Assembly (NCBI GenBank): GCA_937928685.1
Contig: CALGJU010000156.1
Coordinates: forward strand, 1-58,090
Direction of reading: 5' to 3'
Source of the DNA: an uncultured Granulosicoccaceae bacterium
GTDB taxonomy: Bacteria > Pseudomonadota > Gammaproteobacteria > Granulosicoccales > Granulosicoccaceae
DNA: 58,090 nt
Shown here: positions 4,592 through 24,295 of the stretch, piece by piece
How positions within the stretch are numbered: the stretch's first letter is position 1
Layout of the letters: each line of letters starts with the position of its first letter
Made by a program: the position numbers and the translations under genes
The notes under the pieces: model-generated
Databases searched by the model: none
Told to the model about the DNA's origin: nothing
What the model saw: only the letters and a program-made list of their open reading frames with translations

Positions 4592-6298
4592 GTGGATAAT
4601 CTCGTAACGATTACAGTACCCGATATTGGCGACTTTGACGATGTCGAAATCATCGAGCTGCTGGTGCATGTTGGAGACAACATCAACGTGGACGATTCGC
4701 TGCTTACCGTCGAAAGCGACAAAGCCAGCATGGAAATCCCCTCACCTGCACGTGGCGAAGTCAGTGAAATACTGGTATCCATCGGGGATCGAATCGCCAA
4801 AGGCACACCGATAGCCATCATAGCCGCTGAAGAGACTGTAGAAAAAGCGGCCGAGCAAACCACAACCCCCATAGAAAGCACTCAAACATCGGGCAGTCAA
4901 TACGATGTTGCAGTGATTGGCGCCGGACCCGGTGGCTATACTGCAGCGTTTCGTGCCGCAGATCTCGGACTATCAGTACTACTGATCGAACGCTATCCTC
5001 AACTGGGTGGCGTTTGTCTTAACGTCGGTTGCATACCTTCGAAAGCGCTACTACACACCGCCCAGGTCATAAATGAAACCCGTGACATGAAAGATCACGG
5101 CATTAGCTTTGGCGAACCGGAAATTGATCTCGACAAACTACGAGGCTTTAAAGAAAAAGTCATCGGCCAACTCACTACCGGCTTAAAAGGCCTTGCCAAA
5201 CAACGAAGCGTAGAAGTCGCTCACGGCGCTGCAAAATTTTTGTCTTCAAACCAAATTGAAATTGACGATCAAGGCGCTACGCGCACTGTTGATTTTAAAC
5301 ACGCAATCATTGCCGCAGGCTCTTCCGTGGTGCGCATTCCAGGCTTTCCTTATGACGACGACCGGCTTATAGATTCAACCGGTGCGCTGGAACTCGCAGA
5401 CATTCCCGATCGAATGTTAGTGGTTGGGGGAGGCATTATCGGACTCGAGATGAGCTGTGTTTATCAGGCACTCGGCACCAAAATAACAGTTGTCGAATTA
5501 TCCGATGACCTGATACCAGGCTGCGATCGCGATTTAGTGCGACCGTTTCAAAAACGCGTCAGCAAGCTTTTTGAGAACATCTATGTCGGCACCCGAGTGA
5601 CCACTATGGAATCCGCCGCCAATGGCATCACCGTATCTTTTGAGGGCAGCAAGGCACCGGCCACAGACACCTTTGATAAAGTATTACTGGCAGTGGGCAG
5701 ATCACCCAATGGCAAACAGCTGGCTGCAGAAAACGCCGGTGTCACTGTCGATGAACGCGGCTTCATAAAAGTAGATAAACAACAACGCACCAACGTCAAC
5801 CACATTTTTGCGATCGGCGATATTGTCGGTCAACCGATGCTGGCCCACAAAGCCACCCACGAAGGCAAAGTGGCTGCTGAAGTGATCTCCGGTAAGAAGA
5901 CTTTCTTTGATGCCAAAACCATCCCGTCAGTAGCCTACACCGATCCGGAAATCGCATGGATGGGACTGACTGAAATAGAAGCCAAAGAAAAAGGCATCGA
6001 ATACGAAAAAGGCGCTTTCCCATGGGCTGCCAGTGGGCGTGCACTGAGCATTGCCAGAACCGAAGGCATGACCAAGGTATTGGTTGACCCTGCGACCAAA
6101 AGATTACTTGGTGCCGGCATGGTGGGCACCAATGCAGGTGAATTATTGGCGGAAGCGGTTCTGGCACTGGAAATGGGCGCTGACATAGAGGATATTGCAC
6201 TCACGGTACACCCGCACCCCACACTGTCGGAAACTTTGAATTTTGCTTGTGAGGTGGCGGAAGGCACATGTACCGATATATACGCACCCAAAAACTGA
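4592..6298 (+). CDS. lpdA: Dihydrolipoyl dehydrogenase (E3) carrying an N-terminal lipoyl domain
   Basis: GTG start 6 nt after GGAGA. The N-terminal approximately 80 aa form a lipoyl domain (VESDKASMEIPS). This is followed by the FAD motif GAGPGGY, the redox disulfide CLNVGCIPSK and a C-terminal HPHPTLSE. Confidence 0.93.
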   Translation: MDNLVTITVPDIGDFDDVEIIELLVHVGDNINVDDSLLTVESDKASMEIPSPARGEVSEILVSIGDRIAKGTPIAIIAAEETVEKAAEQTTTPIESTQTSGSQYDVAVIGAGPGGYTAAFRAADLGLSVLLIERYPQLGGVCLNVGCIPSKALLHTAQVINETRDMKDHGISFGEPEIDLDKLRGFKEKVIGQLTTGLKGLAKQRSVEVAHGAAKFLSSNQIEIDDQGATRTVDFKHAIIAAGSSVVRIPGFPYDDDRLIDSTGALELADIPDRMLVVGGGIIGLEMSCVYQALGTKITVVELSDDLIPGCDRDLVRPFQKRVSKLFENIYVGTRVTTMESAANGITVSFEGSKAPATDTFDKVLLAVGRSPNGKQLAAENAGVTVDERGFIKVDKQQRTNVNHIFAIGDIVGQPMLAHKATHEGKVAAEVISGKKTFFDAKTIPSVAYTDPEIAWMGLTEIEAKEKGIEYEKGAFPWAASGRALSIARTEGMTKVLVDPATKRLLGAGMVGTNAGELLAEAVLALEMGADIEDIALTVHPHPTLSETLNFACEVAEGTCTDIYAPKN

Positions 6299-8680: not shown

Positions 8681-8919
8681 AACCAGAATAGTCAGACCAA
8701 AAGGGGTCATATCGACTGAATCCAACCATAACTGCGAAATAGCAATCAAATCACAGTAGCATGAGTCGTAAATCAGAAATTCGGAGTCGCGCAAAAGGCA
8801 TGGGCTGCAGCACTTAGGCCCTACTCTTGCGAAGCTGGAAGAATTACAGTAGACAAGCCTTAGCGAGACTATACTCGCGCCATTACACCCCACAGATATC
8901 TTGTTCGGAGAGTTAACCG

Positions 8920-9630
8920 ATGTCAGAAGAAGAATACGACGACGAAGAAGAGATTATTCTCTCAGAACTTAGTGACGACGAACTGGTCGAGCAAATGCAC
9001 GACGATTTGTACAACGGTTTGCGCGACGAGATTGCCGAAGGCACCAACATACTGCTGGAGCGAAAATGGGGGCCTGACAAGGTACTTAACGATGCGCTGG
9101 TAGAGGGCATGCGAATTGTCGGTATCGACTTCCGTGACGGCATATTGTTTGTGCCGGAAGTGCTGATGGCCGCTAATGCCATGAAAGGCGGCATGGAAAT
9201 TTTACGCCCACTGCTTGCTGAGACCGGCGCTGAAACTATCGGCAAAATGGTTATAGGCACGGTGAAAGGCGACATCCACGATATCGGTAAAAATCTGGTG
9301 TCGATGATGATGGAAGGGGCAGGATTTGAAGTCATTGACCTTGGCATCAATAACCCGGTTGAAGACTACCTTGCAGCGCTTGAAGAGCATAAGCCGGAAA
9401 TCCTTGGTATGTCGGCGCTTCTCACCACTACCATGCCCTATATGAAAGTTGTCATTGATACGCTCAAAGAACAGGGTATCCGCGACGACTACATCGTACT
9501 GGTAGGTGGAGCCCCATTGAATGAAGAGTTCAGCGATGCAATCGGTGCAAATGCGTACTGTCGGGATGCAGCCGTAGCGGTTGAAACCGCCTCTAAGTTG
9601 ATCGCCGAACGCCGGGCAGCTGCGAGCTAA
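8920..9630 (+). CDS. Cobalamin-binding corrinoid protein (methyltransferase cognate corrinoid protein)
   Basis: Carries the B12-binding motifs DIHDIGKN (DxHxxG), SALLTTT (SxL) and LVGGAPL (GG). An N-terminal helical cap domain is preceded by a very acidic 33-aa tail (MSEEEYDDEEEIILSELSDDELVEQMHDD). The RBS is GGAGAG. Confidence 0.9.
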   Translation: MSEEEYDDEEEIILSELSDDELVEQMHDDLYNGLRDEIAEGTNILLERKWGPDKVLNDALVEGMRIVGIDFRDGILFVPEVLMAANAMKGGMEILRPLLAETGAETIGKMVIGTVKGDIHDIGKNLVSMMMEGAGFEVIDLGINNPVEDYLAALEEHKPEILGMSALLTTTMPYMKVVIDTLKEQGIRDDYIVLVGGAPLNEEFSDAIGANAYCRDAAVAVETASKLIAERRAAAS

Positions 9631-9632
9631 CC

Positions 9633-10247
9633 TTGCACGCACAGCCTGCTCTAGTAATCGCCTGCGGAGCATTGGCTCGAGAAATAACGACGTTAATTGA
9701 TATCAATCAATGGTCGCAACTGCGGGTACAGTGTGTACCCGCCAAAATCCACAACACTCCCGACAAAATTCCTGATGCCGTACGCAGCCTGATACATAAG
9801 GCGCGTGACAACTACTCGCAAATATTCATTGCCTTTGCGGACTGCGGCACAGGGGGTTTACTAGACACCGTCATTCAGGAAGAAAACGTCGAAAGATTAC
9901 CGGGCGCACACTGCTATGAGTTTCTAGCAGGTAGTGAGACATTTAAACAGATGTCGGAAGATGAGCTGGGTACTTTTTATTTAACCGACTTTCTGGCTCG
10001 CCACTTTGATCGAATCATTATCAAAGAGCTTGGTATAGCCAAACACCCCGAGTTACTTGACATGTATTTCGGCAACTACAAAAAACTTATTTATCTGGCG
10101 CAAACAGACAACCCTGAACTAATGCAAATGGCGCAGGATGCAGCATCAAGACTCAACCTAGAGTACGAGTATCGCCGCACCAATTACGGTGAGCTTGAAA
10201 GCGGACTCAAACAGTTCAACGAAAGTGTTATTCAATGGCAAAACTAA
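9633..10247 (+). CDS. DUF1638-family protein (function unknown, typically linked to corrinoid methyltransferase genes)
   Basis: 204 aa, starting 3 nt after the corrinoid gene stop with a TTG start in the track. The family assignment is from recall of DUF1638 sequence character and its usual neighbourhood. No catalytic motif was recognised. Confidence 0.65.
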   Translation: MHAQPALVIACGALAREITTLIDINQWSQLRVQCVPAKIHNTPDKIPDAVRSLIHKARDNYSQIFIAFADCGTGGLLDTVIQEENVERLPGAHCYEFLAGSETFKQMSEDELGTFYLTDFLARHFDRIIIKELGIAKHPELLDMYFGNYKKLIYLAQTDNPELMQMAQDAASRLNLEYEYRRTNYGELESGLKQFNESVIQWQN

Positions 10248-10576
10248 TCACGGTTTACTGGCGCGATATTCCGGCACAAGTCACTGCAAAGGCCGGTCGT
10301 AAAACTGCCAAAATTCAACTGACTGATCGCTTTCAGGAAGCGATAGATATGGCCGCTATGCGCGCCGGAAAAGGCGGTACAGAAGCCTACCTTGAAGACT
10401 GGCGTCGCGAGCAAAGAGAATGCTCCAACGACCTGGACATGGAGGTAGCCGCAGCCGCACAAGCCATTGAAGAACAGTTTGATCTGGCCGCACTGCAAGC
10501 AATAGTAAAGAACAAAGGCATCGCAGATAAAAGCATTGCAGATCCTGACAGTTCAACCACCAGTACTGACGAGTAA
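10235..10576 (+). CDS. Small conserved protein of unknown function (family often auto-annotated as virulence factor)
   Basis: 113 aa. Overlaps the upstream gene by 13 nt, which suggests coupled translation. The protein is hydrophilic with an acidic C-terminus. Confidence 0.55.
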   Translation: MAKLITVYWRDIPAQVTAKAGRKTAKIQLTDRFQEAIDMAAMRAGKGGTEAYLEDWRREQRECSNDLDMEVAAAAQAIEEQFDLAALQAIVKNKGIADKSIADPDSSTTSTDE

Positions 10577-10582
10577 AACCCT

Positions 10583-11041
10583 TTGTATAAGGTCAGACTA
10601 TGGTCGGTGCGCCGCGCCCGTGCGTTGGAAATTTTCTATAACGCATTCGAAAAAATCGTTGTTGCACTGCACCCTGTGTGGAAGTTCGTCGGCTACGAGC
10701 GAATAGAAAAACCGTTTGCCGTCACTGAAAAAGTGGTTAAAGGATTTCTTTTTGATTGCCAGATGTGTGGCCAGTGCGCATTGAGCTCTACCGGTATGTC
10801 GTGCCCGATGAACTGCCCCAAAAGTTTGCGCAACGGACCTTGTGGCGGTGTGAGAAGCAACGGCAACTGCGAAATCAAACCGGACATGGCATGCGTTTGG
10901 GTTAAAGCCTGGGAAGGCAATGCGCTAATGTCAGAGAACAAGGTACACGTAGTGCAGTTTCCAGTGAACCATCAGTGGCGTGGTCGCTCCTCATGGTTAG
11001 CCGTGGCGCGCGATAAAAATCAGCCAGCGGATAAAAGCTGA
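10583..11041 (+). CDS. Methylenetetrahydrofolate reductase C-terminal-domain protein (MetV-like Cys-rich subunit)
   Basis: Contains the cysteine cluster CQMCGQCALSSTGMSCPMNCPKSLRNGPCGG. Its stop overlaps the next start (TGATG). The start codon is uncertain: TTG at 10583 or GTG at 10607. Confidence 0.75.
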   Translation: MYKVRLWSVRRARALEIFYNAFEKIVVALHPVWKFVGYERIEKPFAVTEKVVKGFLFDCQMCGQCALSSTGMSCPMNCPKSLRNGPCGGVRSNGNCEIKPDMACVWVKAWEGNALMSENKVHVVQFPVNHQWRGRSSWLAVARDKNQPADKS

Positions 11042-12033
11042 TGGAAAAACGCAACGTTCATTTATCACCGGCAGAGCTATTACCCATTCTTCCAGGTCAC
11101 AGTTCGCCCGGAAGATTCGAACGTGTGCTGCGGGCAGGGAAATTTGCCGTCAGCACCGAACTTGCTCCCCCGGATTCCGCAGACCCGGCACAGGTGTATG
11201 AACGTGCCAGCGTGTTTGATGGCTACGTTGATGCAATAAACGCCACTGACGGCAGCGGCGCGCATTGTCATATGTCGAGTGTTGCCGTATGTGGCCTGCT
11301 AACCCGCGCCGGCTACTCACCCATCATGCAAATATCCTGTCGTGATAAAAACCGTATCGCAATACAAGGCGATATCCTTGGTGCATCGGCCATGGGGGTC
11401 GCCAATATACTCTGCTTAAGCGGAGATGGTGTTGAGTCCGGTGATCATCCTCAGGCCAAATCGGTATTCGATCTTGACTGCATGTCACTACTGCAAATCA
11501 GTAAAAACATGCGCGACAATTCAACGTTTGAAAGTGGCCGCAAGCTCGACAAGGCACCCGCCGTATTCTTAGGTGCTGCAGCCAATCCGTTTGCACCACC
11601 GTACGAATTCCGCGCTGATCGTCTGGCAAAAAAAGTCGCCGCCGGTGCACAGTTTGTTCAAACGCAGTACTGCTACGACATTGACATGTTAAAAAACTAT
11701 ATGCATCAGGTTCGTGAACTGGGCTTAGATAAAAAAATATATATCCTGGTGGGTGTCGGGCCGTTGGCTTCCGCTAAAACAGCTGAATGGATTCGCAAGA
11801 ATGTGCCTGGCGTGCATATTCCGGATGCCGTGGTAAAACGCCTTGCCGGGGCAGAAAATCAACGTGCAGAAGTCATCCAGCTGTGCATAGACATGATTCA
11901 ACAAGTCAGTGAAATAGAAGGCGTTCACGGCTGCCATATTATGGCTTACCGTCAGGAACATACTGTGCCCGAAATAGTTGAACGCTCCGGCATTCTGTCG
12001 CTACGCAATAGACGTCAGGCGCCCACACGCTGA
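11041..12033 (+). CDS. metF: Methylenetetrahydrofolate reductase (MetF-like)
   Basis: 330-aa TIM-barrel MTHFR-like sequence (TELAPP, INATDG, SCRDKNR, LCLSGD). Translationally coupled to the MetV-like gene. Confidence 0.85.
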   Translation: MEKRNVHLSPAELLPILPGHSSPGRFERVLRAGKFAVSTELAPPDSADPAQVYERASVFDGYVDAINATDGSGAHCHMSSVAVCGLLTRAGYSPIMQISCRDKNRIAIQGDILGASAMGVANILCLSGDGVESGDHPQAKSVFDLDCMSLLQISKNMRDNSTFESGRKLDKAPAVFLGAAANPFAPPYEFRADRLAKKVAAGAQFVQTQYCYDIDMLKNYMHQVRELGLDKKIYILVGVGPLASAKTAEWIRKNVPGVHIPDAVVKRLAGAENQRAEVIQLCIDMIQQVSEIEGVHGCHIMAYRQEHTVPEIVERSGILSLRNRRQAPTR

Positions 12034-12106
12034 CCCCGATCTCAACGGTCAGTTACATTCCATAGACTGACTTCCATAGTTTTCAGATAATTTCCGGGAC
12101 ACCCCT

Positions 12107-13009
12107 ATGACTGAAACCGTTATCGGTTCCGCCAAACGCGATCACATCATTGGTTTTAACAAACCATTCACTATGATCGGTGAAAGAATCAACCCGACCG
12201 GGCGAAAGCTACTCGCTGAAGAAATGAAGAACGGCGATTTCAGTCGAGTGGAAGCAGATGCTATCGCCCAGATTGAAGCGGGCGCGCATATGCTAGATAT
12301 CAATGCAGGCATCCCACTGGCAGATGAGCCTGCGTTACTGGCACAAGCTATCGAGTTGGTACAGTCGATCAGCGACATTCCTATCTGTATAGACTCGTCA
12401 ATTATCGAAGCGCTGGATCGCGGCCTGCAGGTCTACAACGGTCGCGCCTTAGTTAACTCCGTTACCGGCGAGATGGAACAGCTTGAACGTGTAATGCCTC
12501 TGGTCAAGAAATACGACGCCGCAGTGGTCGCAATATCAAACGATGAAACCGGTATTTCAGAAGATCCGGCAGTGCGCTTCGCTGTGGCCAAGAAAATCGT
12601 AGAGCATGCAGCAGACTATGGCATCAAAGCCTGTGACGTAGTCATAGACCCACTGGTGATGCCAATCGGTGCCATGGGGCAAGCTGGTCGCCAGGTGTTT
12701 GATATCGTCGGACGTATTCAACGCGAACTAAAGTGCAACACCACTTGTGGCGCTTCAAATGTCAGCTTTGGTCTGCCCAACCGTGATGGTATTAACGGTG
12801 CCTTTTTATCGATGGCTATCTCACACGGAATGACTTCTGCAATAACTAACCCCATACATAAAGAGGTCATGGAATCAGTCATGGCGGCGGACGTGCTTAT
12901 GGGACACGACCCGGATTGCCTGAATTGGATTGGAAAGTATCGAGAACCGCCCAAAGACGGCGACGGACGCGGCCGCCGGGTATCAAAAAGAAAACGACCA
13001 GCAAAATAG
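12107..13009 (+). CDS. Methyltetrahydrofolate:corrinoid methyltransferase (pterin-binding domain, AcsE/MtrH/MetH-module-like)
   Basis: Pterin-binding barrel motifs (IGERINPTGRK, LDINAG, NSVTGE, GASNVSFGLP). The C-terminus is arginine/lysine rich (GRGRRVSKRKRPAK). Confidence 0.85.
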   Translation: MTETVIGSAKRDHIIGFNKPFTMIGERINPTGRKLLAEEMKNGDFSRVEADAIAQIEAGAHMLDINAGIPLADEPALLAQAIELVQSISDIPICIDSSIIEALDRGLQVYNGRALVNSVTGEMEQLERVMPLVKKYDAAVVAISNDETGISEDPAVRFAVAKKIVEHAADYGIKACDVVIDPLVMPIGAMGQAGRQVFDIVGRIQRELKCNTTCGASNVSFGLPNRDGINGAFLSMAISHGMTSAITNPIHKEVMESVMAADVLMGHDPDCLNWIGKYREPPKDGDGRGRRVSKRKRPAK

Positions 13010-13087
13010 CCTCAAGTAGCAACGGCCGGTCATAGGTCGATTTAACACAAGGCGTGCACAAGTGGCACAGCCGCAGGAGTTTCGCCG

Positions 13088-15136
13088 ATGTCAGAATCTT
13101 CCACTCAAAGCCTGCCGGACCAGCCAAGTCAGGTTAAACAGGTAAAAGTAGTCTTTACCCCAAGCGGCAAACGCGGCCATTTTCCGGTGAATACACCGGT
13201 TCTGGAAGCCGCCCGTGCACTGGGGGTGGATATCGACTCGGTTTGTGGCGGCCGTGCCATCTGCGGGCGCTGCCAGGTGCTATGTGCCGAAGGCGAGTTT
13301 TCAAAACACGAGATCGTCTCTGACGCAAAAAATCTGTCGGCCTTTACCAAAACCGAAGAACGCTGGGAGAAGGTAAAAAAGCTATCACTTGATGGGCGTC
13401 GTCTCAGTTGTCAGGCACAGTTGCTGGGCGATGTGGTTATAGATGTGCCACCTGACAGCCAGGTGCACAAACAGGTCATTAGAAAAGGCGCTGATCTGCT
13501 CGATATAGAGCTCGATCCATTAGTGAGGCTGTACTTTGTTCAGGTGGAAGAACCTGACATGCATTCGCCGACCGGTGACCTGCAACGCCTTAAGCTGGCT
13601 CTCGAACAGGAATGGCAGCTAACAGACTTAAGGTTTGAATCTTCGTTGCTACCTACTCTGCAACCCGTTCTGCGTAAGGGAGATTGGCAGGTCACTGTGG
13701 CCGTCGCAGAAGATAACAACATTGTCGCGCTATGGCCGGGACTCAAAGAGCAAGTACTCGGCATAGCGATAGACGTCGGTTCAACCACAATCGCCGCACA
13801 CCTATGTGATTTATTAAGCGGCGATGTACTGGCCTCCTCCGGCATCATGAATCCACAGATTCGCTTTGGCGAAGATCTAATGAGCCGTGTCTCCTATGTG
13901 ATGATGAACCCGGGGGGCGAAGTTGAGATGACGAAAGTGGTTCGCGAAGCGATCAATACCTTAGTCACTGCCACCACAGAAGAAATAGAAGCCGATCTCG
14001 CAGACGTTATGGCTATGACCTTAGTTGCCAACCCGGTGATGCACCATCTGCTACTGGGTATCAACCCGGTTGAGCTGGGCGGAGCTCCATTCGCGCTTGC
14101 CACTGATGAAGCGTTCCGCTGTAATGCCAGTGAACTAAACTTTAACACTCACCCCAATGCACAAGTCTATGTACTGCCATGTATCGCAGGCCATGTAGGC
14201 GCCGATACTGCAGGGGTAATATTGGCAGAACGACCCGATACAATGAGTGACATCACTCTCCTGGTTGATGTTGGCACCAATGCAGAGATTGTCCTTGGTA
14301 ATAACGAAAGAATACTCGCCTGTTCGAGCCCGACAGGCCCGGCATTTGAAGGCGCTCAAATCAGTGGCGGTCAACGAGCAGCGCCGGGTGCCATTGAACG
14401 CGTAAGAATTGATCCTGAAACACTCGAACCTAAGTTCAGTATTATCGGCAGTGAATTATGGTCGGATGATCCAGGTTTTGACGCATCCATTGAATCACTC
14501 GGCGTCACCGGTATCTGTGGCAGTGGAATTATCGAAGTGGTGGCAGAAATGTTTCTGGCAGGCTTGATTGACACCAACGGCGTTATCAGCTCAGCGCATG
14601 CAGATAAGTCTGATCGTGTGATTGAAAACGACAGAACGTTTTCTTATCTGCTGCACGATGGCGACGTAAGAATAGTCATCACTCAAAATGATGTGAGACA
14701 AATACAACTGGCTAAGGCTGCGTTGTACGCCGGGGTCCGATTATTGATGGACAGACTGGAAGTTGAACAAGTTGATCGTATCCGCTTAGCGGGTGCATTC
14801 GGCAGCCACATTGATGTTAAGTATGCGATGATCCTCGGTTTGATACCGGACTGCATTCTTAGCAATGTATCTTCAGCGGGCAATGCAGCAGGATCCGGTG
14901 CACGTATGGCGCTGCTTAATCGACGTACCAGAGACGATATTGAACAGCTGGTGAATCAGGTCGAAAAAATTGAAACTGCTGTCGAGCAGAAGTTTCAGGA
15001 TCATTTCGTTGAAGCCATGGGAATTCCGCATAAAACTGCGAAATTCCCAATGCTTTCAGAGCAGGTTACGCTGCCCGAACCGACGCCTGCATCAAGCGGC
15101 GGGCGGAGCGCTCGCCGCAGACGGCGCAGAAGCTGA
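13088..15136 (+). CDS. Reductive activator of corrinoid enzymes (2Fe-2S ferredoxin domain + ASKHA ATPase domain)
   Basis: N-terminal plant-type ferredoxin motif (CGGRAICGRCQV) followed by a large ASKHA-type domain (DVGSTTIAAHL, DVGTNAEI, GICGSG). The C-terminus ends in GGRSARRRRRRS. Confidence 0.85.
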   Translation: MSESSTQSLPDQPSQVKQVKVVFTPSGKRGHFPVNTPVLEAARALGVDIDSVCGGRAICGRCQVLCAEGEFSKHEIVSDAKNLSAFTKTEERWEKVKKLSLDGRRLSCQAQLLGDVVIDVPPDSQVHKQVIRKGADLLDIELDPLVRLYFVQVEEPDMHSPTGDLQRLKLALEQEWQLTDLRFESSLLPTLQPVLRKGDWQVTVAVAEDNNIVALWPGLKEQVLGIAIDVGSTTIAAHLCDLLSGDVLASSGIMNPQIRFGEDLMSRVSYVMMNPGGEVEMTKVVREAINTLVTATTEEIEADLADVMAMTLVANPVMHHLLLGINPVELGGAPFALATDEAFRCNASELNFNTHPNAQVYVLPCIAGHVGADTAGVILAERPDTMSDITLLVDVGTNAEIVLGNNERILACSSPTGPAFEGAQISGGQRAAPGAIERVRIDPETLEPKFSIIGSELWSDDPGFDASIESLGVTGICGSGIIEVVAEMFLAGLIDTNGVISSAHADKSDRVIENDRTFSYLLHDGDVRIVITQNDVRQIQLAKAALYAGVRLLMDRLEVEQVDRIRLAGAFGSHIDVKYAMILGLIPDCILSNVSSAGNAAGSGARMALLNRRTRDDIEQLVNQVEKIETAVEQKFQDHFVEAMGIPHKTAKFPMLSEQVTLPEPTPASSGGRSARRRRRRS

Positions 15137-16168
15137 ACACACAGTGGTGCGACGAAGATTAGACGCTTTACTGTCTTTCTTCGCCTTACTGGCTTCAACT
15201 TGGCCCGCTGCTCTACGCCGCTCATCACGCGGTGGCAGACCAAAGGTATCGCGGTAGCATTTGCTGAAGTGTGGCGCTGATATAAAACCACACGCCAGTG
15301 CAATATCAACAATCGGCATACTAGTCTGCAGCAACAGCTGTCTTGCACGCTCCAATCTAAGCTCAAGATAATATCGGGTCGGTACGCACTGAAGATAGCG
15401 TTGATACAAACGCTCTAATTGTCTGCGTGACAATCCGACGTGAAAAGACAATTCATCAAGCGTCATAGGCTCTTCGATGTTTGCTTCCATCAACGATACC
15501 GCCTCTGCCAGCTTAGGCTGGTTTGTGCCTATACGCTGCGTTAACGGAACGCGTTGTCTGTCGTGTTTGTCTCTGATTCTATCGCACATGAACTGTTCGA
15601 TAATCGCAGAGGCGAGGTCAGCTCCATGTGAGTTCCTGATCTCGTGCAGAATCATATCCAACGGCGCAATTCCACCCGCGCTCGTATAGCGATTCTCATC
15701 GATTTCAAACAGCTCAGGGGAAATCACCAAATGAGGGAATTCCTCTCTGGCACTGGCCATGTTTTCCCAATGGATAGTGCAGCGGTGTCCATCAAGCGCA
15801 TCGGCTTTGGCCAGCACGTAGGTGCCAGTACATATTGCACCTAAGGTCATATCCCGCTTTGAAAGCGACCGCACCCACGCCGTTACATCGGCATCGCTAT
15901 GATGTTGAATTTGATTGCCGGAACATACAAATACTGCATCAAATTGGGGCGCATCATGGATTGAACAATCCGGAGTGATTGGTATGCCATTGCTGGCGTC
16001 GATAGCATCTCGCGATGCACCGATCGTTGTCCATTCGTAGAGGCTTTCGCCTGAAAGTTGATTCGCCATTCGAAGTGGCTCGAGAGCCGACGAAAATGCG
16101 AGCATTGAAAAATCGGATATTAAAAGAAAACCGATCTTAGTCGGCCCGGAGCTCTTGCTTTTTATCAT
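15092..16168 (-). CDS. GlxA-family (DJ-1/PfpI domain + AraC HTH) transcriptional regulator, GbdR/CdhR-like
   Basis: N-terminal class-I amidotransferase-like domain and C-terminal AraC HTH (LSRRQLERLYQ ... FISAPHFSKCYRDTFG). The 3' end overlaps the convergent activator gene by 45 nt. Confidence 0.85.
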   Translation of the reverse strand: MIKSKSSGPTKIGFLLISDFSMLAFSSALEPLRMANQLSGESLYEWTTIGASRDAIDASNGIPITPDCSIHDAPQFDAVFVCSGNQIQHHSDADVTAWVRSLSKRDMTLGAICTGTYVLAKADALDGHRCTIHWENMASAREEFPHLVISPELFEIDENRYTSAGGIAPLDMILHEIRNSHGADLASAIIEQFMCDRIRDKHDRQRVPLTQRIGTNQPKLAEAVSLMEANIEEPMTLDELSFHVGLSRRQLERLYQRYLQCVPTRYYLELRLERARQLLLQTSMPIVDIALACGFISAPHFSKCYRDTFGLPPRDERRRAAGQVEASKAKKDSKASNLRRTTVCSASAPSAASAPPAA

Positions 16169-16703
16169 GCAGTTTATTCCAACCAGTAGCGTGTCTAGTA
16201 GTGCTCAAGATGCTCACGCTTTTTTTTTACTGGTCCGCAATGGCTGCACTTCCTGTGCTTTTGACCGCGATTCTATGATTGATCGCTCTACGTCGCGTGG
16301 GCCTCACTCTGTTCTCGAAGCAGCACGATGATGTACTGTTTGCGACATTTTAGCTTAGGGCCAGATCATTTCACGATAAGGTGCCAAGACGGTATAAACC
16401 GCTATTTGTTATAGTGTTTTCTCATAAACCACTTTTTAGCCATTGATAACTAACCAGTAATTATATTACTGCCCGGTTCAAAAAAATCAGAATTTTATTC
16501 AGGAAATTAGTAATAACTGAACAAAAACAACCCAGTTGACGAGAAATATTTACATTTGCAGCATCAAAATGCTTCTTGATCGCGACTATTTCTGATTCGC
16601 CTGGACGAATAAACGCACCCGCATTAGCTATTTGCGCCGTCAGTAATTGAGCGGCAAAACTCGAAAGTGCTTCGTACTTTGCCGCTCCAGTCATCAGCCA
16701 GAC

Positions 16704-18251
16704 CTAATAATTCGCATCAGGAAATGATGATTTTCTCTGCTCAATGTAAGCCAACAAAGCCTCATCGACCGCTGGATCAATGGCAGGCGCTTCGTAGCTC
16801 TCGAGCATACTTTTCATTTTTACATTGGCTCTTTGTGAGGTGTCCAGTGACCCTTCAGATTCCCACTGTTCAAAGCTGTTGTTGTCTGCCAGGTCTGAAC
16901 GGTAAAACGCCGCTTCAAAGTTTCTTTGCGTGTGATCGCAGCCGAGGAAGTGCTGGCCTGGTCCCACTTCACGCAAGGCATCCAGGGCCTGGCCGTTCTC
17001 ACTGAAGTCCAAACCTTCACCAAACACTTGCAGCATGCCCGCCTGATCAGCGTCCATAACAAATTTTTCATAACTCATTACCAGCCCGCCTTCCAGCCAG
17101 CCAGCGGTGTGCAACATGAAATTAACACCTGCAAGCATGGCAGATTGCAATGTGTTGGCAGCTTCATAAGCCGCCTGGGCGTCAGGCAGTTTCGACGCAT
17201 TGAGTCCGCCACCGGATCTGAATGGAACACCCAGACGGCGCGCCAACTCCGCGGCGATGTATAACACTGAGGTGGGTTCCGGTGTACCAAACGTGGGCGC
17301 ACCCGACTGCATCGAAATACTGCTCGCAAAGGTGCCAAACACCACCGGGGCACCAGGGCGCACCAGCTGCACAAAAGCCATGCCCGCCAGTGCTTCAGCC
17401 AGAATCTGGGTCACGGTACCAACAACTGTGACCGGAGACATTGCACCGGCGAGAATAAATGGCGATATCACTGTCGCCTGATTGGCCAGCGCATAAGTCT
17501 CCGCTGCGCCGAGCATGGTGTCGTCGAAGGTCATCGGGGAATTGGCATTGATCAAGTTGATCACCACCGTTTTTTCATTGCCGGTATCAGGGTCTATATA
17601 GTCATCACCAAATAGTATTTTCGACATTTCAACGGTATCTTGCGCACGCTCCGCCGCTGTCACCGAACCCATATAGGGCTTGTCGCTATAGCGCATATGC
17701 GAATACACCATATCGAAGTGACGTTTGTTGACCGGTAGATCAACCGGCTCACAAACGGTGCCGCCAGAGTGGTGCAGCGATGGCGACATATACGCCAACT
17801 TCACAAAGTTCTGAAAGTCTTCGATATTGGCGTAGCGCCTGCCATTATCAAGATCACGCACAAAAGGCGAGCCATAAGCCGGCACCAATACAGTATTGTC
17901 GCCACCGACGACCACACTTCGGGCCGGGTTGCGGGCATGCTGAACAAATTCTCTCGGCGCACTGTCCTGGATTATCTTGCGACACATGCCACGCGGAAAA
18001 CGGACCCGCTCACCGTCAATATCGGCCCCTGCCTGTTTGAACAACTCCAGCGCACGGGGAAAGTCCCTGAACTCAATGCCGATCTCTTCGAGCACTGTGT
18101 CAGCGTTGTGCTCGATTAGCTCTAATTGCTCTTGTGTTGCATGACAATAAGACGGAATGCGCCGCTTAATATAGGGCGCAACAGGGGCCTGGTTCGCCGC
18201 ACGGGCTCGCTTGTCTTCGCGTCCGCCCCTTCTTCTTCTCTTTCCTGCCAT
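16704..18251 (-). CDS. MttB-superfamily methyltransferase, non-pyrrolysine class (quaternary amine:corrinoid methyltransferase candidate)
   Basis: 515 aa with typical MttB-family blocks (SPMTFDD, GAMSPVTVVG, AEALAG, GAPTFGTPEP, GWLEGGLVMSYEKF). There is no in-frame TAG. The N-terminus is MAGKRRRRGGREDKRARA. Confidence 0.92.
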   Translation of the reverse strand: MAGKRRRRGGREDKRARAANQAPVAPYIKRRIPSYCHATQEQLELIEHNADTVLEEIGIEFRDFPRALELFKQAGADIDGERVRFPRGMCRKIIQDSAPREFVQHARNPARSVVVGGDNTVLVPAYGSPFVRDLDNGRRYANIEDFQNFVKLAYMSPSLHHSGGTVCEPVDLPVNKRHFDMVYSHMRYSDKPYMGSVTAAERAQDTVEMSKILFGDDYIDPDTGNEKTVVINLINANSPMTFDDTMLGAAETYALANQATVISPFILAGAMSPVTVVGTVTQILAEALAGMAFVQLVRPGAPVVFGTFASSISMQSGAPTFGTPEPTSVLYIAAELARRLGVPFRSGGGLNASKLPDAQAAYEAANTLQSAMLAGVNFMLHTAGWLEGGLVMSYEKFVMDADQAGMLQVFGEGLDFSENGQALDALREVGPGQHFLGCDHTQRNFEAAFYRSDLADNNSFEQWESEGSLDTSQRANVKMKSMLESYEAPAIDPAVDEALLAYIEQRKSSFPDANY

Positions 18252-18660: not shown

Positions 18661-18899
18661 GACAAATGTAGCCGCGAAACGGCACACCGGAGCAAATCAA
18701 TTTTGGCGCGACAAACGCTGAGCCATCAAACTCTTCATGAACCATCATTATATGACCCATGCAAGGTGACAACAGGGATGTAGGTAAATAAAGTACACAT
18801 AGCTTTGCGTGGTCAAATCAGCGAAAATATCCTTAATTAATTATCCACTTTTCACTCTAAATACGTATTGCATCAGTCTTGAAATTCAGGCTGTCCACA

Positions 18900-21566
18900 A
18901 TGGGAAAAGCAATGGCAAATCCTCCAGATAAGAAAATTCCGGGCACGGACAAAATCAACCAGGCAACAAGCGATCTCACAAACCAGGCCGACGCATTAGC
19001 GAAAAAAGCCGCAGCAACTGCATCGGCGGCAAAAACATCTACCACAGACGCTGCGAAATCAGTCGTTACCGGCGGCACTGCAACGGGTGGAGCTGTGCCA
19101 CAGCCGGGCAACCGGGGTTCGGGGGGTAGACCTGCGATACCGGGTCAAAACGCTGCCCCGTCATCAGATACACCGCCGCCATTGCCAAAGACTGCAACTA
19201 CCACTAATACGTCAGCGCCTGCTACACCACCAGTGATTCCTGCTGATGCAGCGAAAAATACAACTAACACGGCTGCTGCAAACAGAGCTCAGCCGGCCCG
19301 ACCGCCGGTGGCCAGACCCGCCTCCGCCGCGCAGACTTCGAGCAGAACTGAAAGCCCCAGACCAAAACAATCAGCTTCCAGCGTGTCATCAAGTGAAACT
19401 GAAGTTCGTCGCAGCTCACTAGAGCGACCGGTCAGCGCTACAGACAACACCCACCGCTCGGCAGCGCAAAGAACTGCCCAAAGCATGGACGCAAACCGTC
19501 GTCCGATGCGCCGGGAGGGCTCAGGACGCCCTGCAGCAGACAGACCGCGATCGGCCCGACCGGGATCACGTCCACCTGCCCGGCCAGACACACGCCCCGT
19601 CTATCGTGATTCCCGCCCAAGACGTGCAATGGCTCCACCGCCAGGAGCACGGAAAGGCAGATACGTCGCTCCCGCCGCACGCGCTCGTCGCCCGGGCTAT
19701 GTTGTCCCACCGGCGGTAGCTGCTGATGGCGGCACTGCATGGGGCCCTTTGTTATTCGGGGTTTTGTTGCTGTTGGGGGTGCTGTGGTACGCGATCAAGC
19801 ACTACGCACCAATGATCAACGCCGATTTAACTACCCGCACTAACACCGCCTTGTCAGAAGCTGGCTACGATTCTGCTTCAGTCGAGATTGACGGAAGAAG
19901 TGCCATCCTCACTGGCAACGTTGACGCCCAACCTGATAGCGAGCGCGCCGAAGAGGTGGTTGCCAGCACTATTGGTGTACGTGATGTTGACAACCAACTG
20001 ACCGTCGGTACTACTGACACCGCACAAGTCGAACGCACAGAATCTAGCCTGACATTCTTTGCGACTGAGGCCGGAGTCAAGTTATCTGGCACAGTGTCCG
20101 ATCAGGAATACGCCACCAGAATAGAAACCACAGCCAAAGAGGCTTACGGAGAAGACCGTGTTAGCGGAAGTATCAAAGTTGATGCAAACACGACCAATCC
20201 GGGCTGGTGGCCAGCGGTTCAACAACTGACTCCAGACCTCAATGGTATTGAAGGTGGTTCTTTCTCCGTAATGAACGGCTCGCTGTTACTCACTGGATCT
20301 GCAAGCGACGAGCAAGCCAAAAGCGATATCGGAGCGAAAGCCGCGGAACTGCTAAACGGCCAACTCACTGTTGACAACAGAATTACCGTTCCAACAACCG
20401 CGGCCCCTGCACCGGCACCTCTGAAACCGGGCTTTGCAACAATCTACAACAGCCCTGATCGAATCGCACTCTATGGCAGCCTGCCTGCTGATAGTGCAGC
20501 GGCAATTGAAAGTGCTCTCGACAGCGCAGATAAACCGGTAGCGAGTTTTATAACTACAAGCGACGAGTTCGAAGCGCCTTCCTGGGCAGCCAGCCTCGGC
20601 GGATCATTGAACGCGATGCTGGACATCGAAAAAGCAAAAGTGAAAGTACAGCCTTCCGGAGACGTACTCATATCCGGCATCGCCACTTCTGATGACGCCA
20701 AGCAGACAGCCGGCGACAATGTATCTGCGTTGTTCCCCGATCAGTCCATTGACAACCGAATCGCGGTTCGAGTCCCGGCAGCGGCGCCAGCGCCACAACC
20801 AGCACCCGAGCCAGAGCCAGAACCAGAGGTTGCACCTGCGCCGTTTATGAAGCCTTTCGCAACAATAACGGACCTGGGCTCGAAGGTAACCATCATGGGT
20901 CTACTGCCAGCGGCCACCACCGAATCGATCACACGCGCCTTTGAGGGCGCTGGTCGGTCTGTTGTCACCAATGTCACCATCGATGAACGAGTTATGGCGC
21001 CTGTATGGGGCGATGCCATCACGCAATCGCTTGATACCCTGCGCGGCATTGAAAACGCTAAGATGGCTGTGTCATCAGCCGGCGATGTCACAATCAGCGG
21101 AATCTCTGCAAACGAAGGTGAACGCCAGCGCGCTGCGGACAATAGCCTGGCAGCGTTTGGCAACTCTGTGAGTTTGCGCAACGACATTACAGTCAAAGGC
21201 CCTGATATTAGCGAGCTGTTTGCACAGATCGATCTGGCAGCAATCCGGTTCCGTTCAAACAGTTCCGAATTGGATTCAGATAGCATCAGTATTCTGGATC
21301 AGGTTGCCGACGCGCTATTTCAAATACCAGATGCCACGGTGGCCATTTCAGGCCATACCGACGCAACCGGTAAAGATGAGCGCAATCGGGTACTGAGCGC
21401 TGAGCGGGCCGAACGGGTGAGAAGTTTCCTGATCGATCGCGGTATCAGCGGTGACAGAATGACATCACAGGGCTATGGTTCCAGCCAACCTATAGCTTCC
21501 AACAACACGGTTACCGGTCGGGCCCTAAATCGACGCATCGAATTTGGGTTCACCAACGGAGAATAG
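18900..21566 (+). CDS. Large inner-membrane-anchored BON-domain / OmpA-C-like peptidoglycan-binding protein
   Basis: The N-terminal approximately 290 aa are a Pro/Ala/Arg/Ser-rich low-complexity region. One TM helix follows (LLFGVLLLLGVLWYAI), then BON-like modules ending in the DNxLTV/DNRITV motif. The C-terminal OmpA domain reads RFRSNSSEL ... GHTDATG ... NRRIEF. The start could be ATG 18900, ATG 18912 or the track TTG at 18879. Confidence 0.85.
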   Translation: MGKAMANPPDKKIPGTDKINQATSDLTNQADALAKKAAATASAAKTSTTDAAKSVVTGGTATGGAVPQPGNRGSGGRPAIPGQNAAPSSDTPPPLPKTATTTNTSAPATPPVIPADAAKNTTNTAAANRAQPARPPVARPASAAQTSSRTESPRPKQSASSVSSSETEVRRSSLERPVSATDNTHRSAAQRTAQSMDANRRPMRREGSGRPAADRPRSARPGSRPPARPDTRPVYRDSRPRRAMAPPPGARKGRYVAPAARARRPGYVVPPAVAADGGTAWGPLLFGVLLLLGVLWYAIKHYAPMINADLTTRTNTALSEAGYDSASVEIDGRSAILTGNVDAQPDSERAEEVVASTIGVRDVDNQLTVGTTDTAQVERTESSLTFFATEAGVKLSGTVSDQEYATRIETTAKEAYGEDRVSGSIKVDANTTNPGWWPAVQQLTPDLNGIEGGSFSVMNGSLLLTGSASDEQAKSDIGAKAAELLNGQLTVDNRITVPTTAAPAPAPLKPGFATIYNSPDRIALYGSLPADSAAAIESALDSADKPVASFITTSDEFEAPSWAASLGGSLNAMLDIEKAKVKVQPSGDVLISGIATSDDAKQTAGDNVSALFPDQSIDNRIAVRVPAAAPAPQPAPEPEPEPEVAPAPFMKPFATITDLGSKVTIMGLLPAATTESITRAFEGAGRSVVTNVTIDERVMAPVWGDAITQSLDTLRGIENAKMAVSSAGDVTISGISANEGERQRAADNSLAAFGNSVSLRNDITVKGPDISELFAQIDLAAIRFRSNSSELDSDSISILDQVADALFQIPDATVAISGHTDATGKDERNRVLSAERAERVRSFLIDRGISGDRMTSQGYGSSQPIASNNTVTGRALNRRIEFGFTNGE

Positions 21567-21568
21567 AA

Positions 21569-24295
21569 ATGAATGTCATGGGCGAATTAGCTTTCATATT
21601 GGGTCTCACCGCTATCGCTGGAGCCATCATTGGTTGGTGTATCAGAAATTTCTTTTCTGGCGGTTCAGACAAAAGGGTCAGACAGAATTTCGCCCGTGAC
21701 ATTGATGATGCGATGAAAGATGCCGAGCATCTTCGGCACACACTCGACACAAAAAATCTGGAACTTCGCGATGCGAAGAACGAAGTGCAGCAGCTGCGCC
21801 GCAAGGATAGCTCGGTGGAGTCCGGTACTCGTGCGCAGGTAATCGAAATAAATGATCTGAAAAAAGAGCTTGCGACAACAAAAAAATCACTGCTTGAAAA
21901 CCAGTCTGAGTTCAATTCCTTCCGTACCGAAAAACAAAAGGAACAAAGTGAGCTTCGCAATGAGCTCTCTAAGTACACCGCTGGCGGGTCGGCCAGCAGT
22001 GAGCGATTAGCAGAAGCCACTGAAACTGTGGGTGCGCTGCGAAGTGCCGTTCGAGAGAACGATAAGGTCATTGAAAGCCTTAGAGCACGGGTAAAAGAAA
22101 CAGACTCTACCGTTGAGACCTTACGCAGCCAGTTGACGGCGGCAGAGTCAGGTCGCAGCAAAGTCGAAACAGTCACACTTGAATATGATTCCAAACTTGA
22201 AGAGCTAACAAAATCGCTAGAGACCGCCAGCGACACCGTTGAAAAACAAAAGCACGACTACGACCTGATGCTGGAAAACAAAAACGCAGACATCAAAACC
22301 CTGCATGCCAAACTTGAAACGCTTAGCGCCGAGAGCTCAACCATGAGAAGTCGCGAACATGACTTTAAAAAGAGCGAGAAGCAATTCAAGGAAACCGAGA
22401 GCAAAATTGCATCAGAAGTATCCGATCTAAAGCGTGTGATAGCTGACCGTGATGAAGCACTTACCAAGTCAAAGCAACAAGTCAGTGAACTCAACACACA
22501 AATCAAAGACATTAAGCTTCATGAGCAGAAGGAAGTTCAACGTCTGCAGTCAGAAATAAAAGACACGGCAACTACACGCTCAAAAATCAAGAGCAAAAGT
22601 GCAGAGGTCGCAGCACTCAATGACATGCTGAGAGACTCTGCCGGTAAGCGTGATGTGCTACAAAGGAGTGTTGACAAACTAAACACAACACTCACAGAGA
22701 AAGACAAGCGTATTCAATCGTTGCGCGAAGAGCTTGATGATGTGGCGGCAAGTCGCAACAAGACTTCTGCTCAACTTGGCGAACTGCAAGCACAAGGCAA
22801 TATTGCGCTTGAGAAACTGCAGCAAGACCTCAACCAACTTGCCGCTACTCGTGACGAATACAAAGCTCGTATCGATAGTCTTCAAAGTCAGGTTTCAGAA
22901 CTTCAGCAATCCAAAGAAAAGCAGCAACTCGAACTGACCAACAGCGCCAAGGCAGAACAAAGCAAACTCAAAGAAAACAGCGAGCAATTGTCAGCTAAAA
23001 ACCTGGCACTGCAAAACGAAATGAAGGCCCTGCAACACCAGCTTAAAACATTCCGTAGCGCCGGCGATGAATCGAAAACCCGCATTGAAAACATGCAGTC
23101 GCAGATATCAGAACTGACTCAATCAAAGGAGAACCAGCTACGTGAGCTGCGCACTCAGCTGACCACAAGTTCACAGGCAAATGAAACTAAGCTGAGAGAG
23201 TCGAATACGGAGATCGCCAAGCAAAATAACATGCTGCAAAATGATCTGAAAACGCTGCAGGCCAAACTTCACGATCAAACACGTACACTGGAAAGCCAGA
23301 AGCTGGAAGCCACCAAACAGCTGGAGATCAATCAAAGACTGACCAGCAAACTGCAAGATAAGGAAAGTCGGCTTGCTGACTTTCGCACCAGGCTGGTACG
23401 TGAAGAAAGTGAAAGCCAACGCCTCAATCGAGAGGTATCCGATACAGAGACACTGCGTTTAACTCTGACCGAGCGGGATGCAGAGCTTCGTAAAGCACAA
23501 ATTGCACTGCAAGATACTCAGCTATCCGGTGGACCAATGCAAAAAGTGCTGGAAGAACAAACCCGTAAAAATGATTCTTTGTTGGCCGCGATGCGCGAAC
23601 GTGATGAAGAGATATCACGACTCAACTCACAACTGACCAGCAACAGCCTTAAAAACAAACAGCAACAGTCCAGCATTACCCTTTTGACGCAAGAGAAAGA
23701 CTCTCAAAGCGAGCTGGTGCGGTCACTTGAAAAGCAGGCAGAAAACACCCTGCAGCTGCACACAAAAATTGCACAACAATCTACCGAACTGGAAGAGCTG
23801 AAAGCTCGACTGTATGAACGGGACAACCACCGCAGGACCGCGAGTGCTACTTCAAAATCGGCCACCGCTTCCACCAGCGCCAACAACCTGCAACCCAACA
23901 ACCTGCAGCAAGTTGAGACCCGATCTACTGGCGCCAAGCCACGCGTGTTTGTGCGAGCGGATACCGACACGGAAGCACTGACCGGTGCAACCGGTTATAC
24001 GTCAACACAAAGACCACAATTCACCAAAGACGGGCACCGGATACGCCGCGCGGATGGCACTGATGAGCTCACGTTGCTTCCAGGTGTCACGCAAACCATC
24101 GCGGGAGCGTTTGCCCGCAACGGAGTGACAGACTTTGAGCAAATATCACTATGGACCGATCGCGAAGTTGTCCACTATGCTGAGCGCGTAGGGGTTTCGG
24201 TGCAGCGAGCCGAACAGTACAACTGGCCGAGGGCAGCACGCAGCATACTAAAAGGCAGTTACAGCAAGAACGGTCAGGAGATCGGCAACTCGTGA
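21569..24295 (+). CDS. Membrane-anchored long coiled-coil protein with C-terminal helix-hairpin-helix-like domain
   Basis: Starts 3 nt after the upstream stop. An N-terminal TM helix (LAFILGLTAIAGAIIGW) is followed by approximately 750 aa of E/K/Q/L/S-rich heptad-like sequence. The C-terminal motif DELTLLPGVTQTIAGAFARNGVTDFEQISLW resembles the DDLxxIxGIGPxxExxLxxxGIxxFxQIAxW module. Confidence 0.8.
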   Translation: MNVMGELAFILGLTAIAGAIIGWCIRNFFSGGSDKRVRQNFARDIDDAMKDAEHLRHTLDTKNLELRDAKNEVQQLRRKDSSVESGTRAQVIEINDLKKELATTKKSLLENQSEFNSFRTEKQKEQSELRNELSKYTAGGSASSERLAEATETVGALRSAVRENDKVIESLRARVKETDSTVETLRSQLTAAESGRSKVETVTLEYDSKLEELTKSLETASDTVEKQKHDYDLMLENKNADIKTLHAKLETLSAESSTMRSREHDFKKSEKQFKETESKIASEVSDLKRVIADRDEALTKSKQQVSELNTQIKDIKLHEQKEVQRLQSEIKDTATTRSKIKSKSAEVAALNDMLRDSAGKRDVLQRSVDKLNTTLTEKDKRIQSLREELDDVAASRNKTSAQLGELQAQGNIALEKLQQDLNQLAATRDEYKARIDSLQSQVSELQQSKEKQQLELTNSAKAEQSKLKENSEQLSAKNLALQNEMKALQHQLKTFRSAGDESKTRIENMQSQISELTQSKENQLRELRTQLTTSSQANETKLRESNTEIAKQNNMLQNDLKTLQAKLHDQTRTLESQKLEATKQLEINQRLTSKLQDKESRLADFRTRLVREESESQRLNREVSDTETLRLTLTERDAELRKAQIALQDTQLSGGPMQKVLEEQTRKNDSLLAAMRERDEEISRLNSQLTSNSLKNKQQQSSITLLTQEKDSQSELVRSLEKQAENTLQLHTKIAQQSTELEELKARLYERDNHRRTASATSKSATASTSANNLQPNNLQQVETRSTGAKPRVFVRADTDTEALTGATGYTSTQRPQFTKDGHRIRRADGTDELTLLPGVTQTIAGAFARNGVTDFEQISLWTDREVVHYAERVGVSVQRAEQYNWPRAARSILKGSYSKNGQEIGNS

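Follow-up and report, generated by a model that had tools for sequence, protein, structure and literature searches.

A Granulosicoccaceae locus with the parts of the aerobic MtgBCD system for corrinoid-dependent demethylation of quaternary amines, most likely glycine betaine

Introduction

Glycine betaine is among the most abundant marine osmolytes and nitrogen-rich substrates, and, according to a recent proposal, the B12-dependent MtgBCD route is a major demethylation pathway of the ocean and a highly expressed one. Here we analyse a nine-gene module for corrinoid-dependent methyl transfer (8920-18251) on a contig of an uncultured Granulosicoccaceae gammaproteobacterium (GenBank assembly GCA_937928685.1, contig CALGJU010000156.1, positions 1 to 58,090); the whole 58,090-nt stretch is referred to as the window. 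The module comprises an MttB-superfamily methyltransferase, a stand-alone corrinoid protein, a pterin-binding methyltransferase, a methylenetetrahydrofolate reductase (MTHFR) with its Cys-rich partner, a reductive activase, a DUF1638 protein, a small PF13769 protein and a GbdR-like regulator. We read it as a probable Granulosicoccaceae version of the aerobic MtgBCD system, which would pass a methyl group from a quaternary amine to tetrahydrofolate (THF). Cultured Granulosicoccus species are aerobic marine chemoheterotrophs.

An initial annotation of the window, made from the sequence alone, took the characterised non-pyrrolysine MttB systems to be confined to strict anaerobes, a premise outdated by work on Ruegeria pomeroyi (Mausz et al., PNAS 2025, PMC12478193). 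This aerobe grows on glycine betaine with the MttB-family protein MtgB, the cobalamin-binding protein MtgC and the pterin-binding protein MtgD, as shown by proteomics together with mtgC and mtgD knockouts (PMC12478193). Both knockouts fail to grow on glycine betaine and are methionine auxotrophs; the MtgC/MtgD core also serves the homocysteine-binding MtgE, with which it makes up a split methionine synthase (PMC12478193). On N-osmolytes, MtgBCD rise together with MetF2, a MetF paralog that is the most strongly induced protein, while MtgE falls; a RamA-like activase and a DUF1638 protein are co-induced (PMC12478193). In marine Alpha-, Gamma- and Deltaproteobacteria, these genes are frequently found near one another or within operons, and Sinorhizobium meliloti has them in a cluster (PMC12478193). 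For its split methionine synthase, aerobically grown Phaeobacter inhibens depends on both a DUF1638 protein and a RamA-like protein of Fer2+DUF4445 architecture (Price et al. 2018, PMC5764234).

Results

Seven genes converge on mttB and a GbdR-like regulator

All nine open reading frames (ORFs) that the initial annotation assigned to the module lie where it had placed them, and in profile searches against Pfam and NCBIfam each has a strong match to the family named there (Table 1). Seven form an operon-like run on the + strand (8920-15136) that begins with the corrinoid protein and ends with the RACo-type activase, with intergenic spacings of 2, -13, 6, -1, 73 and 78 bp. The other two, mttB and the gbdR-like gene, both read from the - strand and are 535 bp apart. 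The activase and gbdR-like genes are convergent and their 3' ends overlap by 45 bp, an arrangement that agrees with the earlier description of two units facing each other. All module ORFs are intact, and the GC content of the module is uniform with that of the surrounding DNA.

Table 1. Features of the module and of the surrounding window, with window coordinates and the basis of each assignment
Feature	Coordinates	Strand	Basis
Intergenic region upstream of mtgC, presumed operon promoter	8681-8919	+	sequence
mtgC-like stand-alone corrinoid (cobalamin-binding) protein, 236 aa	8920-9630	+	PF02607 B12-binding_2 5e-17, PF02310 B12-binding 2e-26
DUF1638 protein, 204 aa, TTG start	9633-10247	+	PF07796 5e-31
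Small PF13769 protein, 113 aa	10235-10576	+	PF13769 'Virulence_fact' 2e-19
MetV-like Cys-rich MTHFR partner, 152 aa, TTG start	10583-11041	+	PF12225 8e-26
MetF2-like MTHFR, 330 aa	11041-12033	+	PF02219 2e-37
mtgD-like pterin-binding methyl-THF:corrinoid methyltransferase, 300 aa	12107-13009	+	PF00809 Pterin_bind
RACo/RamA-like ATP-dependent reductive activase, 682 aa	13088-15136	+	Fer2 + RACo_linker + Raco_middle + RACo_C_ter (ASKHA), 2e-93
GbdR-like GATase1 (DJ-1/PfpI)-AraC regulator, 358 aa	15092-16168	-	DJ-1/PfpI + AraC helix-turn-helix
Non-pyrrolysine MttB-superfamily methyltransferase (MtgB-like), 515 aa	16704-18251	-	PF06253, model 1-500/500, 754 bits
Pyruvate dehydrogenase (PDH) E1/E2/E3; upstream of module, malic enzyme also upstream	182-6298		
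2-Oxoglutarate (2OG)-Fe(II) oxygenase (one)	37014-38078	-	
Homocysteine S-methyltransferase, Bmt/MtgE type, likely start near 38101	38059-39156	+	PF02574 9e-63
c-type cytochrome	44478-44894		
Fpr-like reductase	51106-51894		

The corrinoid protein carries the DxHxxG motif as GDIHDIG, and it scores below the cutoff of the NCBIfam models for the MtgC of anaerobes (205 vs 370). The mtgD-like protein passes NCBIfam PRK07535 (358.6 bits vs a cutoff of 259), and the best NCBIfam match of the MetF2-like protein is the MTHFR half of PRK08645. The MetV-like protein contains the Cys-rich stretch CQMCGQC...C..NC...C; as in MTHFRs of the MetVF type, the PF02219 gene has a Cys-rich PF12225 gene adjoining it, here with a 1-bp overlap. 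The activase has a CX4CX2C motif in its N-terminus and shares its architecture with PGA1_c15200 of P. inhibens (PMC5764234). The MttB homolog is uninterrupted over the whole PF06253 model, and its gene therefore has no in-frame UAG, which upholds its earlier placement in the non-pyrrolysine class. A pyrrolysine-type trimethylamine methyltransferase was ruled out on the lack of an internal stop and on a TIGR02369 score of 252.1 bits vs a cutoff of 525.

The module is conserved around MttB orthologs

In a scan of one genome per species, we found that at least 592 stretches encode close relatives of the window MttB, and we read the neighbourhoods of the 80 closest loci (68-90% identity). Module genes lie no more than 10 kb from the MttB ortholog in 47 of these 80 loci; the pterin methyltransferase (MtgD) and the RACo activase are both present in 35, MetF in 27 and MetV in 26. 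In 18 loci, mttB is followed immediately by the corrinoid gene in the same orientation, and the whole set is therefore one operon there. The GbdR-like regulator, 58-74% identical to that of the window, adjoins mttB in 13 related loci. Because dozens of species have this gene set around their MttB orthologs, the module is a conserved functional unit and not a chance neighbourhood. Its carriers include Halioglobus, Woeseia, Steroidobacteraceae, Motiliproteus, Porticoccaceae and sponge symbionts, and the closest MttB relatives of the window are found in Granulosicoccaceae and other marine Gammaproteobacteria.

The same module, with proteins 92-99% identical and the same neighbours, is present on a 149-kb metagenomic contig (L081). 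The MetV-like gene is not annotated there (17218-17682), though tblastn finds it at 94% identity; annotation probably misses this small Cys-rich subunit systematically.

Among published loci, we compared the module with that of S. meliloti (L082), in which a gene matches the N-terminus of PDB 4YYC. This locus encodes a cobalamin-binding protein, DUF1638, a 'virulence factor' (PF13769), an MTHFR C-terminal-domain protein, an MTHFR, a methyl-THF cobalamin methyltransferase, an ASKHA protein, bmt and a glycine betaine/proline ABC transporter. Identities to the window proteins are 78% for MtgC, 50% for DUF1638, 52% for PF13769, 63% for MetV, 68% for MetF, 62% for MtgD, 60% for RACo and 47% for bmt, and the window genes are orthologous to and syntenic with this cluster, which is the one named in PMC12478193. 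The window contains the parts of the aerobic MtgBCD(E) system: an MttB-family enzyme, a stand-alone MtgC, an MtgD with adjacent MetF2, the activase and DUF1638 proteins, and a protein of the Bmt/MtgE type.

Two conserved proteins accompany the corrinoid machinery

The 113-aa protein had been described as of unknown function; the gene is indeed there, but its product is not family-less, as it belongs to PF13769. Proteins of this kind are stand-alone and about 100 aa long, have more than 2,600 homologs, and are strongly conserved, nearly invariant, over the N-terminal 60 residues. The PF13769 gene is present in 31 of the 35 loci that have both MtgD and RACo, and three of the four exceptions are cut off at the end of the examined flank; where metVF is missing from a locus, it still accompanies the genes for the corrinoid protein, MtgD and RACo. 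The PF13769 protein is thus a conserved component whose association with the module is as faithful as that of the activase. The papers that define the aerobic MtgBCD(E) system make no mention of it. Its AlphaFold model is confident (predicted local distance difference test score, pLDDT, 82.9), and a Foldseek search returned no fold relative in the PDB, with nothing better than E 0.4.

The DUF1638 protein is, by analogy with the aerobic systems described above, presumed to be a corrinoid reactivation or handling factor. Residues C11, C34, C71 and C94, together with H40 and H93, are invariant across 32 homologs (61-97% identity), and because of this invariance the four Cys and two His suggest a metal or cluster (Fe-S) site. 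Its AlphaFold2 model has a pLDDT of 85.9 and is without a significant fold match in the PDB; Foldseek gave only generic alpha/beta hits (E >= 4e-3, template-modelling (TM) score < 0.4). A sequence search of the PDB gave no real match for either the DUF1638 or the PF13769 protein.

The predicted betaine site and the context of orthologs point to glycine betaine

We compared the MttB homolog with Desulfitobacterium hafniense MtgB, the S. meliloti protein of PDB 4YYC and Methanosarcina MttB. It is 67-68% identical to S. meliloti MttB (PDB 4YYC) and 46% identical to D. hafniense MtgB; with PDB 7XCL, the C-terminal half alone aligns (122 bits). In D. hafniense MtgB, glycine betaine is held by Y97 and F356 through cation-pi contacts and by R312 and H348 at the carboxylate (Picking et al., PMC13080624). 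Mapping through the PDB alignment showed that Y126, R345 and H381 of the window protein correspond to MtgB Y97, R312 and H348, and R345 and H381 are invariant in 124 of 124 aligned sequences.

On an Azoarcus plasmid, a 72% identical ortholog sits among folD, ETF-QO, a choline ABC substrate-binding protein, betA and betB, and in a complete Granulosicoccus genome a 78% identical ortholog adjoins a DAO-FAO_M-GCV_T enzyme of the dimethylglycine/sarcosine dehydrogenase type and an S-methyl_trans gene. Because of the betAB and choline transporter genes, the dimethylglycine-dehydrogenase-type gene, the GbdR-like regulators and the three of four MtgB residues, we consider glycine betaine the probable substrate of the window MttB, as judged from genomic context and residue conservation. 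The quaternary-amine substrate class proposed in the initial annotation is supported. That annotation held that the substrate itself could not be read from the sequence; it is partly readable.

The initial annotation did not connect the Bmt/MtgE-type gene at 38059-39156 to the module. Its product passes NCBIfam PRK07534 'betaine--homocysteine S-methyltransferase' (453.8 bits vs a cutoff of 338). Orthologs stand beside mttB in eight related loci (L002-L006, L008, L009, L074) and about 8-9 kb off in L031 and L034; in other Granulosicoccaceae, they lie about 2-4 kb upstream of mttB. In the window, the gene is head-to-head with the 2OG-Fe(II) oxygenase gene and next to a TRAP transporter (33167-36311, -), and because the Bmt/MtgE ortholog adjoins mttB in other Granulosicoccaceae, the block that contains it seems to have been rearranged here. 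The protein probably acts as the homocysteine-binding partner of the module's corrinoid protein, a role that would link the module to methionine synthesis.

The regulator and the DNA upstream of the module genes

The regulator is GbdR-like, as initially described: it combines a DJ-1/PfpI domain with an AraC helix-turn-helix and comes close to the cutoff of the NCBIfam GbdR equivalog, a near match that also points towards glycine betaine; among the matches listed for it (25 of 33 NCBIfam matches), there is no CdhR or SouR model. Upstream of mtgC, the sequence GAGTCGCG at 8784-8791 resembles the GGTCGC half-site of GbdR/CdhR-family regulators, as described for the CdhR/GbdR-family regulators of Pseudomonas (PMC5806209). 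Motifs of the GAGTCGCG/GGTCGCG type lie 55-134 nt upstream of mtgC or mttB starts in the window and in L004, L008, L009, L074 and L079, a set chosen post hoc and statistically not established. We regard GAGTCGCG as a weak lead to a possible regulator half-site.

The best operator candidate, TTACTGCCNGGTTCAA at 16466 and 18410, was dropped, as two or more matches occurred in 37 of 100 shuffles. The top k-mers upstream of mttB in 14 related loci are not operators either: they fall inside a conserved upstream phosphatase-like gene. An Rfam scan found no cobalamin or S-adenosylmethionine (SAM) riboswitch in the 58-kb window. Sigma-70 promoter-like sites number 5, fewer than the mean of 11.4 in shuffles, and terminator-like sites number 16, slightly more than the 10.2 of shuffles; both are uninformative for operon boundaries.

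The wider window

As the initial annotation had noted, the setting is of an aerobic type: PDH, cytochrome c, an Fpr-like reductase and one 2OG-Fe(II) oxygenase are found in the window. Beyond mttB, three large co-oriented genes (18879-25592, +) encode an 895-aa BON+OmpA protein, a 908-aa coiled-coil protein with a weak crescentin-rod-like match and a 415-aa protein without a Pfam match. This trio is conserved in L081, and the AT skew is strikingly high (0.37) at 22001-24000. It is followed by a gene for a 687-aa molybdopterin oxidoreductase (25702-27765, -), which stays well short of every NCBIfam equivalog cutoff; its best match, formate dehydrogenase alpha, has 284 bits vs a cutoff of 666.

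At 45837-50951 (-), LarA-like (Lar_N/LarA_C) and LarC-like nickel-insertion genes, a 284-aa ORF and a LarB-like AIR-carboxylase-domain gene adjoin a D-2-hydroxyacid dehydrogenase gene; judged by these domains, the group looks like a nickel-pincer cofactor racemase/epimerase cluster. In a 285-aa protein (52504-53361, -), the GFA (glutathione-dependent formaldehyde-activating enzyme) domain occurs twice in tandem; the protein scores far under the cutoffs of the Gfa equivalogs and may be relevant to one-carbon (C1) or formaldehyde handling.

Discussion

The complete cluster is real, and it is of a kind already described in aerobic marine bacteria in 2025. We consider it likely that the locus is the Granulosicoccaceae copy of the aerobic MtgBCD system, demethylating a quaternary amine into the THF C1 pool, and put at roughly 0.7 the probability that this amine is glycine betaine. 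In the working that we propose, the betaine would be bound by the MttB homolog with its carboxylate on R345 and H381 and its trimethylammonium group against Y126 and probably W385, and one methyl group would be transferred to Co(I) of the stand-alone corrinoid protein. The mtgD-like enzyme would then move the methyl group from CH3-Co(III) to THF, and the MetV/MetF pair (10583-12033) would convert CH3-THF to CH2-THF for C1 oxidation or assimilation. The initial annotation had drawn the same route, from substrate-CH3 through CH3-Co(III) and CH3-THF to CH2-THF, which we judge to be correct; the direction of the MetF2-like enzyme is presumed. Working in reverse, MtgD together with the corrinoid protein would probably also serve the Bmt/MtgE-type enzyme as a split methionine synthase.

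Co(II), formed by oxidation of the cofactor and expected often in air, would be re-reduced by the RACo-type activase with ATP and its 2Fe-2S cluster, and the DUF1638 protein, possibly the PF13769 protein too, would assist this reactivation. MtgC, MtgD, the RamA-like protein and DUF1638 are needed in the orthologous systems. The initial annotation held that the way in which Co(I) is kept up could not be read from the sequence; it too is partly readable, as a RACo/RamA-like activase and a DUF1638 protein are required in aerobic Phaeobacter (PMC5764234). The GbdR-like regulator would turn the genes on upon glycine betaine or dimethylglycine.

Several points weigh against this assignment. The published knockouts covered mtgC and mtgD, with no MttB paralog among them and no in vitro assay (PMC12478193). 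Granulosicoccaceae lie outside the hosts studied for the aerobic MtgBCD(E) system, the window locus is known from sequence alone, and the aerobic lifestyle of its source organism is itself deduced from aerobic-type genes in the 58-kb window and from taxonomy. No dimethylglycine or sarcosine catabolic genes were found in the window, and no betaine transporter adjoins the module. Against the NCBIfam GbdR equivalog NF052371, the regulator reaches 470.7 bits over residues 7-342, just under the cutoff of 480, and the regions upstream of mtgC, mttB and gbdR gave weak matches only, with no shared operator demonstrated among them. At the predicted betaine site, G389 stands where MtgB has F356, so that the window protein does not have the aromatic pair Y97/F356. 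W385, invariant in the clade and four residues before G389, may supply the second aromatic face in its place, which is a guess. The ligand in PDB 4YYC is recorded as unknown.

The altered site bears on the possibility that the module works as described but that its MttB acts on proline betaine, carnitine, gamma-butyrobetaine, choline/phosphocholine or another betaine. The change from F356 to Gly and the altered loop (HTAGWLEGG vs HTAGILQYF of MtgB) are common to all 123 proteobacterial homologs examined, and the aromatic pair is what varies between MttB-family specificities, R312 being common to them (PMC13080624). Aerobes moreover carry up to seven MttB paralogs, thought to differ in substrate (PMC12478193), and the identity to D. 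hafniense MtgB is 46% only. On the other hand, Y97, R312 and H348 are all kept, the MttB of the S. meliloti core cluster belongs to the same clade, and orthologs in the clade adjoin betAB with a choline transporter, a dimethylglycine-dehydrogenase-type gene and GbdR-like regulators. We therefore regard another substrate as unlikely, though with a chance that deserves to be kept in mind.

A different division of labour is that the operon is mainly a replacement for MetH, in the form of a split cobalamin-dependent methionine synthase and the proteins that reactivate it, with MetF running reductively and MttB and GbdR accessory or independent. The Bmt/MtgE-type gene in the window, the position of its orthologs beside mttB in relatives and the location of mttB on the strand opposite to the operon would fit this. 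However, mttB heads the same operon in 18 related loci; in the window, 20 kb separate the homocysteine methyltransferase gene from the operon, whereas mttB and the gene for a betaine-type regulator adjoin it; and in R. pomeroyi, MtgBCD and MetF2 go up and MtgE goes down on N-osmolytes. We find this division of labour improbable, and because both roles are compatible in the published model, it is mostly a matter of emphasis. The O2 sensitivity of Fe-S and Co(I) chemistry, and the presence in the window of a molybdopterin oxidoreductase of uncertain type, could also suggest a recently acquired, anaerobe-type relic that is non-functional under oxic conditions. We considered and rejected this as very improbable: GC content is uniform with the surroundings and the ORFs are all intact, the module is kept at 50-99% amino acid identity in many aerobic or facultative Gamma-, Beta- and Alphaproteobacteria, and its orthologs are expressed and needed in aerobic cultures.

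Under the preferred assignment to the aerobic MtgBCD system, the locus reveals no new kind of system; what interest remains attaches to the pair of conserved but uncharacterised proteins, to the change in the aromatic cage and to the link to GbdR. With this locus, Granulosicoccaceae, a family common on kelp, sponges and bryozoans, join the carriers of the pathway, which here takes the form of one compact, regulator-linked operon that is convenient for heterologous reconstitution. The locus also highlights PF13769 and DUF1638 as conserved proteins with a possible part in keeping the corrinoid active in air. More speculatively, the PF13769 protein and the four-Cys DUF1638 protein could be unrecognised dedicated parts that enable the Co(I)/Co(III) cycle in O2, for example as partners of the RACo activase in electron delivery, cofactor loading or shielding, while the W385-type MttB proteins form a clade with a differently built aromatic cage and possibly a different or broader specificity. 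That both hold together strikes us as rather doubtful, and we offer the combination tentatively.

The closest known counterpart is the aerobic MtgBCD(E) system of R. pomeroyi, P. inhibens and S. meliloti, which has the same parts and occurs in aerobic Proteobacteria, gammaproteobacterial operons included. The genes of R. pomeroyi and P. inhibens are scattered, whereas those of the window form one compact operon. PMC12478193 mentions neither PF13769 nor MetV-like genes and does not discuss regulators, whereas a GbdR-like regulator is attached to the module of the window. The MtgB/MtgC/MtgA system of D. hafniense (PDB 2QNE/9YCE; PMC13080624) follows the same logic, from an MttB-family enzyme to a corrinoid protein to a THF methyltransferase, but its host is a strict anaerobe, unlike the setting of the window. 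The window differs from it further in the replacement of F356 by Gly with a clade-specific Trp nearby, in a corrinoid protein below the NCBIfam MtgC cutoffs, in a 2Fe-2S RACo-type activase and in having MetVF, DUF1638 and PF13769 encoded alongside. With Methanosarcina MttB/MttC/RamA, the window has the superfamily and the corrinoid/activase logic in common; the Methanosarcina MttB contains pyrrolysine, whereas the window MttB has neither UAG nor pyrrolysine, and the methyl acceptor in the window would be THF, not coenzyme M. The GbdR regulon of Pseudomonas aeruginosa (GbcAB Rieske glycine betaine monooxygenase, DgcAB, SoxBDAG) is under a regulator built like that of the window and presumably responding to the same inducers. 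GbcAB depends on O2, whereas the window demethylase would be B12-dependent with no need for O2, and the locus points to a GbdR-type regulator that controls a B12-dependent demethylase instead of a Rieske-type one.

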